From: a virus
Taxonomy: Duplodnaviria; Heunggongvirae; Uroviricota; Caudoviricetes
Strand: one strand, 5' to 3'
IMG/VR virus record: IMGVR_UViG_2548876950_000005
Coordinates: 1 to 7,863 of that record
DNA length: 7,863 nt
This document shows positions 510-859 of this stretch, piece after piece. Positions within the stretch are counted from its first letter, which is position 1. The number at the start of each line of letters is the position of its first letter. Position numbers and translations under genes: made by a program. The notes under the pieces are model-generated. The model saw only the letters and a list, made by a program, of their open reading frames with translations. It made no database searches and was not told the origin of the DNA.

Positions 510-809
510 TTAAAATTCCATCTGGATTTGTTCAGAACGCTCGGTCTTGCACACCGGGCGTTTTTTCTTTGTGATTTCATCAAGCGCATACTTAAAAGCC
601 CTGCTAATCGGACTGATGTCTGATGCCATTCCGAAAGCACACAAGACTGAAGCAATAAATCTCCAGTCCGTTCTGCTTATCTTCGATTCATGACAGCCAA
701 TCATCTTTGCCAGACCGCGCTGAGTAAGCGTTGACAGGTTGATGAGTAAATCTGTTTCTGCGCGATCAACGTCGCGCTGTGATAGTTTGCTGTAACTTGT
801 TTGTTCCAT
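510..809 (-). CDS. cII: CII-like transcriptional activator (lysogeny establishment)
   Basis: 99 aa. C-terminal KKKRPVCKTERSEQIQMEF is near-identical to the lambda CII C-terminus (…NKKRPAATERSEQIQMEF) as I recall it. Position between cro and the replication gene matches lambda. Confidence 0.8.
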   Translation of the reverse strand: MEQTSYSKLSQRDVDRAETDLLINLSTLTQRGLAKMIGCHESKISRTDWRFIASVLCAFGMASDISPISRAFKYALDEITKKKRPVCKTERSEQIQMEF

Positions 810-818
810 TTCTTATGA
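787..818 (+). promoter_or_regulatory. Candidate pRE-like promoter: CII-box-like TTGC-N6-TTGT (787-800) inside the first cII codons, -10-like TATGAT (812-817), oriented antisense to cro towards cI
   Basis: Read directly. Geometry mirrors lambda pRE, where TTGC-N6-TTGC repeats flank the -35 within the cII 5' coding region. Confidence 0.3.
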
Positions 819-836
819 TTTCCAATAGTGAATATT

Positions 837-859
837 ACGCATCTGTTGATGCGTTTTTT
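837..859 (+). terminator. Intrinsic-terminator-like hairpin (7-bp stem ACGCATC/GATGCGT, 4-nt loop, T-run 854-859) on the plus strand; on the minus strand it is an A-preceded hairpin in the cro-cII spacer (tR1 region)
   Basis: Read directly; pairing 837-843 with 848-854, followed by a T-run. Confidence 0.4.

Follow-up and report, generated by a model that had tools for sequence, protein, structure and literature searches.

Does the early region of this lambdoid prophage contain a promoter that fires straight into a terminator? At the 5' end of its cII gene lies a sequence resembling the CII-activated establishment promoter pRE, pointing towards cro and cI, and just downstream on the same strand stands a hairpin followed by a run of T. 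An earlier note on this DNA, made from the sequence alone, proposed that establishment transcription would be attenuated almost at once at the hairpin unless it was antiterminated. It named as an alternative that the hairpin serves solely the RNA of the other strand, where it would belong to a tR1 adjacent to nutR, and it is this alternative that the comparative evidence favors. Our preferred conclusion is that the hairpin at 837-854 is probably the tR1-region stem of the pR transcript, and that its terminator-like appearance on the plus strand is a by-product of a two-base variant in the adjoining linker.

The 7863-base window, by which we mean the whole stretch of DNA that was analyzed, comes from a lambdoid prophage of E. 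coli and covers its immunity and early regulatory region, in an orientation opposite to that of the lambda map. It gave a 100% match to E. coli strain Z1323CEC0019. The following features outline its circuit:

Minus-strand neighbor of cII: O-like replication gene, start only.
487-566, plus strand: oop-like antisense RNA unit, with a TATAAT hexamer at 487-492 and a strong terminator (stem 534-564, T-run to about 570).
510..809, minus strand: cII gene, 99 aa, encoding a CII-family activator (ORF; Pfam PF05269 Phage_CII, E 4e-34).
907..1131, minus strand: cro-like gene, 74 aa (ORF; Pfam HTH_3, P22_Cro and YdaS matches; annotated as Cro in phage SH2026Stx1).
1243-1950, plus strand: gene for a cI-type repressor (HTH and Peptidase_S24).
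1988-2329, plus strand: gene for a DUF3024 protein, then a terminator-like site at 2354-2377.
2481-3002, plus strand: 173-aa ORF without a Pfam match, then a terminator-like site at 3306-3330.
3770-3976, plus strand: gene for an N-family antiterminator (Pfam PF25694 N_peptide, E 2.7e-16).
4872-4930, plus strand: RNA thermometer of the cIII gene, a full-length match to that of lambda (Rfam RF01804, 88.5 bits, E 3.7e-21).

The PF05269 match spans residues 1-93 of the CII protein, and the matching E. coli genomes annotate the ORF at 510..809 as a CII family regulator. Like its lambda counterpart, the oop-like terminator (534-566, plus strand; -16.5 kcal/mol) overlaps cII at the 3' end of the gene. 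Together the N-family gene, the cIII thermometer and the oop-like terminator indicate that a full lambda-type circuit is present in the window.

The top Pfam match of the cro-like protein (907-1131, minus strand) is named 'YdaS_toxin' (E 1.1e-17). This name is misleading for the product, since its position and context are those of Cro. The N-family ORF (3770-3976, plus strand) comprises merely 68 aa counted from a GTG start, the N_peptide model aligns with its C-terminal part only (model positions 44-100), and its Arg/Lys-rich N-terminus, MKAREIRKLERARKHK, may be an RNA-binding motif. The rex position between cI and pL (1988-3330, plus strand) is taken by two genes, each with a terminator-like site after it. 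A small ORF of 47 aa (MRKTQENKRV...; 344-487, minus strand) lies between cII and the O-like gene, and a hypothetical protein is annotated at the corresponding place in SH2026Stx1. Positions 1-63, within the O-like gene, hold a 21-bp unit, GCTCCTGCCCCACCCCGGGCA, repeated almost three times in tandem; the lambda origin iterons sit at the matching position, inside the replication gene.

The segment in question, 787-900, would be a lambda-type cro-cII intergenic control region that is read on both strands. Its elements, together with the nutL partner, are:

787..800, plus strand: CII-box direct repeats TTGC-N6-TTGT, within the first cII codons (sequence; spacing as in lambda).
814..819, plus strand: -10-like hexamer TATGAT of the predicted pRE, 4 nt after CAT, the same position as lambda AAGTAT.
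824..827, plus strand: predicted pRE transcription start, placed by alignment to lambda.
837..854, both transcripts: 7-bp palindromic hairpin ACGCATC-TGTT-GATGCGT (folding; position equivalent to the lambda tR1 stem-loop).
855..862: linker between hairpin and boxB and source of the T-run, reading TTTTTGTG on the plus strand and CACAAAAA on the pR (minus) strand (sequence).
863..879, minus strand: nutR boxB of the pR transcript, GGGGAUGAUUCGUCCCC (96% inverted repeat with the nutL copy; fold; also in nine viral contigs).
886..899, minus strand: nutR boxA of the pR transcript, CGCTCTTTAAACAA (sequence; a conserved TTAAAGAGC adjoins every boxB type).
3576..3616, plus strand: nutL, consisting of a boxA-like GGCTCTTTAACATT and boxB at 3598-3614 (inverted-repeat partner of nutR).

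The promoter proposed in the earlier note was largely borne out. The CII-box-like repeats are present at the cII 5' end, with TTGC at 787-790, six intervening nucleotides at 791-796 and TTGT at 797-800, and 6 nt separate the end of the box from CAT (807-809), the complement of the cII start. The -10-like hexamer also exists, but at 814-819; the position first given for it, 812-817, reads CTTATG and was off by 2. The window promoter reads TTGC-TGTAAC-TTGT-TTGTTC-CAT-TTCT-TATGAT, whereas lambda CII loci (80 loci with 98-100% lambda CII, the majority identical to it) read TTGC-GTTTGT-TTGC-ACGAAC-CAT-ATGT-AAGTAT. Each spacing is the same, so that the arrangement TTGC-N6-TTGN-N6-CAT-N4-(nAnnAT) is identical to authentic lambda, and the geometry is indeed lambda-like, with a cognate CII-family gene present. 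The two promoters differ in the second CII repeat (TTGC in lambda, TTGT here) and in the -10 hexamer, where the window's TATGAT is nearer to consensus than AAGTAT.

Relatives of the window follow the same plan. The pattern TTGC-N6-TTG[C/T/A] ending 6 nt before CAT was found in most of about 60 further contexts with differing CII N-termini (MEHANKRN, MELAKDSKK, MENSINRNK, MDNTTTRNK and others), and the nAnnAT hexamer in these relatives begins 4 nt past CAT. The exceptions are confined to a few lineages and consist of TTTC, GTGC or TTAA in one repeat, or of a 3-nt shift that corresponds to an extra codon. Repeats that stay constant while the residues they encode vary are good evidence of a CII site. 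A simple sigma-70 consensus scan of 400-1300 returned zero promoters, which is expected of an activator-dependent promoter without a -35 hexamer and makes the scan uninformative here. The lambda pRE start is the 17th nucleotide after CAT, which corresponds to window position 826. Thus the predicted start, at about 824-827, lies 11-13 nt upstream of the hairpin rather than downstream of 859. As judged from sequence, the prediction that 787-827 is a lambda-type, CII-dependent pRE is well supported.

The hairpin consists of ACGCATC (837-843), the loop TGTT and GATGCGT (848-854), and is followed by TTTTT (855-859) and a G. The 7-bp stem reported earlier for 837-859 is therefore present, but its tail is T5-G, since the reported T6 includes the stem-closing T854. 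RNA folding gave -10.1 kcal/mol for the plus strand and -10.0 kcal/mol for the minus strand; for comparison, folds of about -16 kcal/mol were obtained for the oop terminator and for the one that follows the 1988-2329 gene. On the plus strand the 7-bp stem, with 4 G-C pairs, stands directly before U5-G-U, which is the layout of an intrinsic terminator, whereas the minus strand lacks this layout. A pattern scanner applied to 400-1300 found 3 terminator-like sites, the hairpin included, compared to 1.0 ± 1.1 in shuffled sequence, which indicates that the bare motif is not far above chance. An Rfam search of the entire window at E up to 1 returned the cIII thermometer alone and nothing at 787-900. 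A role of the hairpin as a 5'-terminal stabilizing stem for the pRE RNA was considered and ruled out, as about 11 unpaired nucleotides precede it.

Candidate terminators across the window were ranked with a hairpin-plus-T-tail discriminant (after d'Aubenton-Carafa et al. 1990) that serves for relative ranking only. With full-length stems true terminators score negative, their stems running into the T tracts, and the whole-window ranking accordingly allowed trimmed stems. Four sites on the two strands were positive: 2354-2371 (27.4), 538-560 (24.7), 3306-3323 (18.4) and 838-853 (12.6). The last of these, our hairpin, is the weakest; each of the others is plausibly placed to end a transcription unit. 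The hairpin itself is not so placed; it lies just after the predicted pRE start and before cI, which the pRE RNA must express. On the minus strand no site in the whole window had a positive discriminant. When the cassettes of relatives were scored, only types A and D were positive, type A being that of the window, and solely on the pRE strand; on the pR strand no cassette type reached a positive terminator score, with tails far under threshold.

How the hairpin has fared among relatives was judged from 96 loci that encode the window's CII family, by comparing the DNA downstream of the -10 hexamer. Every cassette type with a recognizable boxB, lambda included, has a stem-loop between boxB and cII, whereas two HK022-like cassettes without boxB (L042, L082) showed no comparable stem. 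The stem reads TATGCGT-GGAA-ACGCATA in the 933W-like type, ACTCATC-TTTC-GATGAGT in the P22-like boxB type and GCGCATC-N4-GATGCGT in further cassettes. In authentic lambda it reads TGTATGCA-AATAAA-TGCATACA, which we take to be the classical tR1 stem-loop. A scan for the pattern CGCATC-N4-GATGCG followed by boxA matched 72 viral contigs and gave 62 distinct contexts, among which there were at least 8 boxB types, many cII variants and freely varying loops. When 29 distinct hairpins were aligned, 97% of cells were paired and 2 pairs showed compensatory changes (AU/UA and GC/UA/CG). None of 500 shuffles reached the observed covariation values, for which the outer three pairs alone are informative because the inner four were set by the search pattern. 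The hairpin itself is thus far above chance, being kept in more than 60 contexts and with compensatory changes. The direction in which it is read was addressed through G-U wobbles: pairing is about 97% in the pRE sense and about 94% in the pR sense, with outer-pair wobbles pointing to the pRE sense and one internal wobble to the pR sense. This mixed signal does not tell the selected strand and lends no support to selection in the pR sense.

The hairpin is also retained where cII is not. At 6 loci (L204, L218, L220, L223, L226 and L242) a YdaT-type gene (179 aa, Pfam PF06254) replaces cII, and YdaT is reported to be functionally equivalent to CII (PMC9986795). At all six, the hairpin, boxB and boxA are kept, the TTGC-N6-TTGC repeats are absent, and TTGATAAGTAAGTGATTG stands before the start codon. 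Furthermore, BLAST matches of the window to most relatives stop at about 834-837, the edge of the hairpin, which indicates that the nutR side forms a mosaic module distinct from that of the cII/pRE core. The cro-cII intergenic region (834-885; L187-L250) is itself mosaic, in that the conserved boxA TTAAAGAGC and the CGCATC/GATGCG hairpin bracket a swapped boxB of at least 8 types.

The T-run behaves differently from the stem that it follows. Among the linkers, taken as the 8 nt that follow the stem when the pRE strand is read, there are 31 distinct variants with a pooled composition of 55% T, 25% G, 15% A and 5% C. A T-run of at least 4 occurs in three of these and is absent in the other 28. 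Typical linkers are TGGTTGTA, TGGTTTAT and AGTTGTTA, most being TGGTTGT-like, and viewed on the pR strand the linker is A/C-rich and nearly G-free. Cassettes that share the same boxB vary at precisely the T-run bases (TAGTTG, TTGTTG, TTTTTG). The cassette most closely related to that of the window shares its stem and has a related boxB, AGGGACGAAACATCCCT, and TGGTTGT where the window has TTTTTGT, a change of GG to TT; the window's linker is ACAAAAAA and the usual form ACAACCAA. A run of T4-5 after the same stem was gained independently in a second lineage (L094, L243, L246). As far as these sequences tell, the T-run is the extreme of a continuum and is not conserved.

The window's own cassette, type A, was found identical from boxA to the cII start in 9 viral contigs and in 10 of 5426 complete E. 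coli genomes. Since all 19 copies are identical, there is no variation within the type by which selection on the T-run could be gauged. The flanking cII and cro alleles differ among these copies, and in strain 98E11 the cassette lies within a P22-like prophage. A metagenome scan for the boxB family yielded no additional type A copies and many chance matches, no copy was present among the INPHARED phages, and the literature held neither a report of a terminator after pRE nor expression data for the type A cassette. Carriage of the cassette by prophages means that lysogeny has evidently been established with it. Two further properties set type A apart: it has the shortest distance from the cII start to the stem, 27 nt, and no other Stx-type cII cassette matches the -10 as well as its TATGAT does, the others having TAAGAT or TACTAT.

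The second CII repeat (797-800) is polymorphic, reading TTGT with CII Thr4 in the window and TTGC with Ala4 in L099, L100 and L106, where the TTGC-N6-TTGC allele accompanies the same cassette. A single base thus alters the CII protein and also its own binding site.

The sense of the nut sites was fixed by a 23-nt inverted repeat, 856-878 with 3598-3620, that is 96% complementary and pairs nutR with nutL; boxB is accordingly read on the minus strand at nutR and on the plus strand at nutL. On the pR strand the order of elements is cro, boxA, boxB, an A/C-rich and G-poor linker, a hairpin without a U tail, and cII. The C/G ratio in the pR sense is above 1 from the cro end through nutR, with a peak of 2.18, and the linker that adjoins the hairpin is rich in A and contains one C. 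Because the CC to AA change takes two C from this putative rut-like linker, the variant is a poor fit to a Rho-loading role. On the pRE transcript no sense-oriented nut site was found. Action of N on the pRE RNA was therefore ruled out, as boxA and boxB are antisense there, and N cannot rescue transcripts that terminate early. Thus the claim of a promoter firing into a terminator and needing antitermination is unsupported on two counts: the T-run is absent in almost all relatives that share the hairpin, and the pRE RNA carries no nut site in the sense orientation.

Studies of lambda provide a framework for what the hairpin may do instead. At lambda tR1, Rho loads on C-rich nut-site RNA, and polymerases pause and terminate shortly past the hairpin unless they are modified by N. 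The Rho-dependent terminator tR1 of both lambda and H-19B has a rut site with which nutR overlaps (PMC3526286). Furthermore, pausing at tR1 by polymerases that started from lambda PR occludes PRE, a 5.5-fold interference (PMC5001618). Rho-terminated E. coli transcripts end just past stable stem-loops without U tracts, and these stems shield the transcripts from exonucleases (PMC6061677).

We propose that the selected role of the window hairpin lies in the pR transcript, where it would make polymerase pause, protect the 3' end of a Rho-terminated cro message, or do both. Polymerases from pR that paused there would sit over pRE (790-830). Both Rho dependence and pausing at this hairpin are carried over by analogy from lambda. 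On the opposite strand, CII-dependent transcription would begin about 11-13 nt before the palindrome, such that each lambda-like pRE RNA would begin with the hairpin (+11 to +30). The type A linker would then place five to six U right behind the hairpin in the pRE RNA and give it the look of a moderate terminator, and some fraction of pRE transcripts may be released at about 860-863. Because the hairpin with U5-6 passes the discriminant, some release at about 860, and with it a partial attenuation of the pRE RNA, is plausible on sequence grounds. Such early release would be a tolerated by-product and not a regulatory device that needs antitermination. Carriage by prophages, recombination of the cassette with several cII and cro alleles, and the fickleness of the T-run all argue that any effect falls short of a designed switch, being partial and tolerated.

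Could the T-run nonetheless have been selected? The hairpin and T-run might form a promoter-proximal attenuator of pRE in this phage type, at which most CII-activated RNAs would stop after about 35 nt. The outcome would be either a smaller burst of cI that biases the phage to lysis, or a short CII-dependent antisense RNA covering the cII leader and the nutR flank, a counterpart of oop at the 5' end of the gene. Such a device would account for 5-6 U directly behind a stem of -10 kcal/mol at a site that, with only three others in the window, passes the discriminant (d = 12.6), for the fact that types A and D alone are positive and on the pRE strand alone, and for the T-run that arose independently in the L094/L243/L246 lineage; the short start-to-stem distance of type A (27 nt) would also fit, its -10 could be compensation, and the region already yields one short antisense RNA with a strong terminator, the oop-like element at 538-566. 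We nevertheless consider selection for attenuation unlikely, given that 28 of the 31 linkers sharing the hairpin have no T-run, that near-identical cassettes differ in it in a manner resembling drift, and that the site scores lowest of the window's four. With boxA and boxB antisense, such an attenuator would have no route for read-through of pRE transcripts, and the phage type exists as prophages, so that establishment works. A stronger form, in which the linker mutation of type A, and independently that of L094/L243/L246, has turned the tR1 hairpin into an efficient pRE terminator, making the main product a CII-dependent RNA of about 35 nt that acts in negative feedback or against nut, and leaving cI to be expressed by read-through, seems to us decidedly improbable.

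The two remaining explanations do not involve a pRE-specific device. A palindrome kept as CGCATC/GATGCG across very different flanks, at the edge of which BLAST matches stop (about 834-837), might be an element of the DNA rather than of any RNA structure, either bound by a dimer of some host or phage protein or serving as a junction that promotes exchange of immunity and nut modules. The stop of the matches there fits a module boundary, but compensatory changes preserve the pairing while altering the sequence, the loop sequence varies freely, and unrelated palindromes occupy the same place (TATGCGT-N4-ACGCATA in the 933W-like type, TGTATGCA-N6-TGCATACA in lambda), all of which fits a conserved structure and makes a DNA-level role very unlikely. 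Alternatively, the hairpin might be a bidirectional intrinsic terminator, a Rho-independent tR1 for the pR RNA that also stops plus-strand RNA. The near-equal folds of the two strands (-10.0 and -10.1 kcal/mol) are what such an element would show, and on the minus strand an A-run precedes the hairpin and an A/U-rich stretch follows it. However, the minus-strand tail, AAUAUUCACUAUU, has just 3 U in its first 8 nt, and the minus-strand discriminant is -55 for the 7-bp stem. Neither the minus strand of the window nor any cassette type on the pR strand gave a positive score, and lambda tR1 is Rho-dependent (PMC3526286, PMC5001618). We therefore hold bidirectional termination to be extremely unlikely, and return to a tR1-region stem of the pR transcript as the preferred reading.

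With this reading the window agrees with lambda nutR/tR1/pRE in the order of elements on the pR strand, in a pRE that lies antisense within the first cII codons with identical spacing, and in a hairpin 10-20 nt past the pRE start. The sequences of stem, boxB and linker differ, and the tail on the pRE strand is CCATAGG in lambda compared to TTTTTG in the window. Similarly, the converging promoters and a tR1 pause region over pRE match those for which PR-PRE interference was measured in lambda (PMC5001618), pausing in the window being the inferred part. A T-run able to release pRE polymerases early would be a feature of the window that is undescribed for lambda. The pR strand resembles the Rho-terminated transcripts of Dar and Sorek (2018; PMC6061677) in having a stable stem-loop without a U-rich tail where Rho termination is expected; in those transcripts rut lies downstream of the protective stem, whereas the C>G zone of the window lies upstream, around nutR, as in lambda tR1. 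The plus-strand motif is comparable to lambda oop/t_o, a short cII-antisense RNA with a hairpin and T-run at its end and with a homologue in the window at 538-566. Unlike the 837-859 motif, oop has a constitutive promoter of its own and a far stronger terminator (-16.5 kcal/mol) and pairs with the 3' end of cII; the motif studied here would act on a CII-dependent transcript at the 5' end of cII.

Overall, the window element is ordinary lambdoid architecture with a rare linker variant. The firmer result is the comparative one: in the cro-cII region of lambdoid phages boxA and, strongly so, the hairpin are conserved and are combined with a G-poor linker and a swappable boxB, and the hairpin outlasts the exchange of cII for YdaT. 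This architecture should aid the annotation of nutR, tR1 and pRE in prophages, with the caution that terminator predictors will call the hairpin on the wrong strand. Should the T-run stop a sizeable share of pRE transcripts, the cassette would be a naturally occurring allele in which two changed bases of a non-coding linker tune the decision between lysis and lysogeny, and the tR1 hairpin, which every lambda-like pRE transcript crosses, would stand one mutation step from a terminator for the opposite strand.

A further small structure was noted on the nutL side. About 30 nt past the nutL boxB lies a 5-bp hairpin, GCGCA-GGTCGA-TGCGC (3649-3664, plus strand), which may be a structure of the N leader or a processing site. 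Across the window and L099, L100, L102, L104 and L106, other copies read GTGCA...TGCAC at this place, a compensatory double change.
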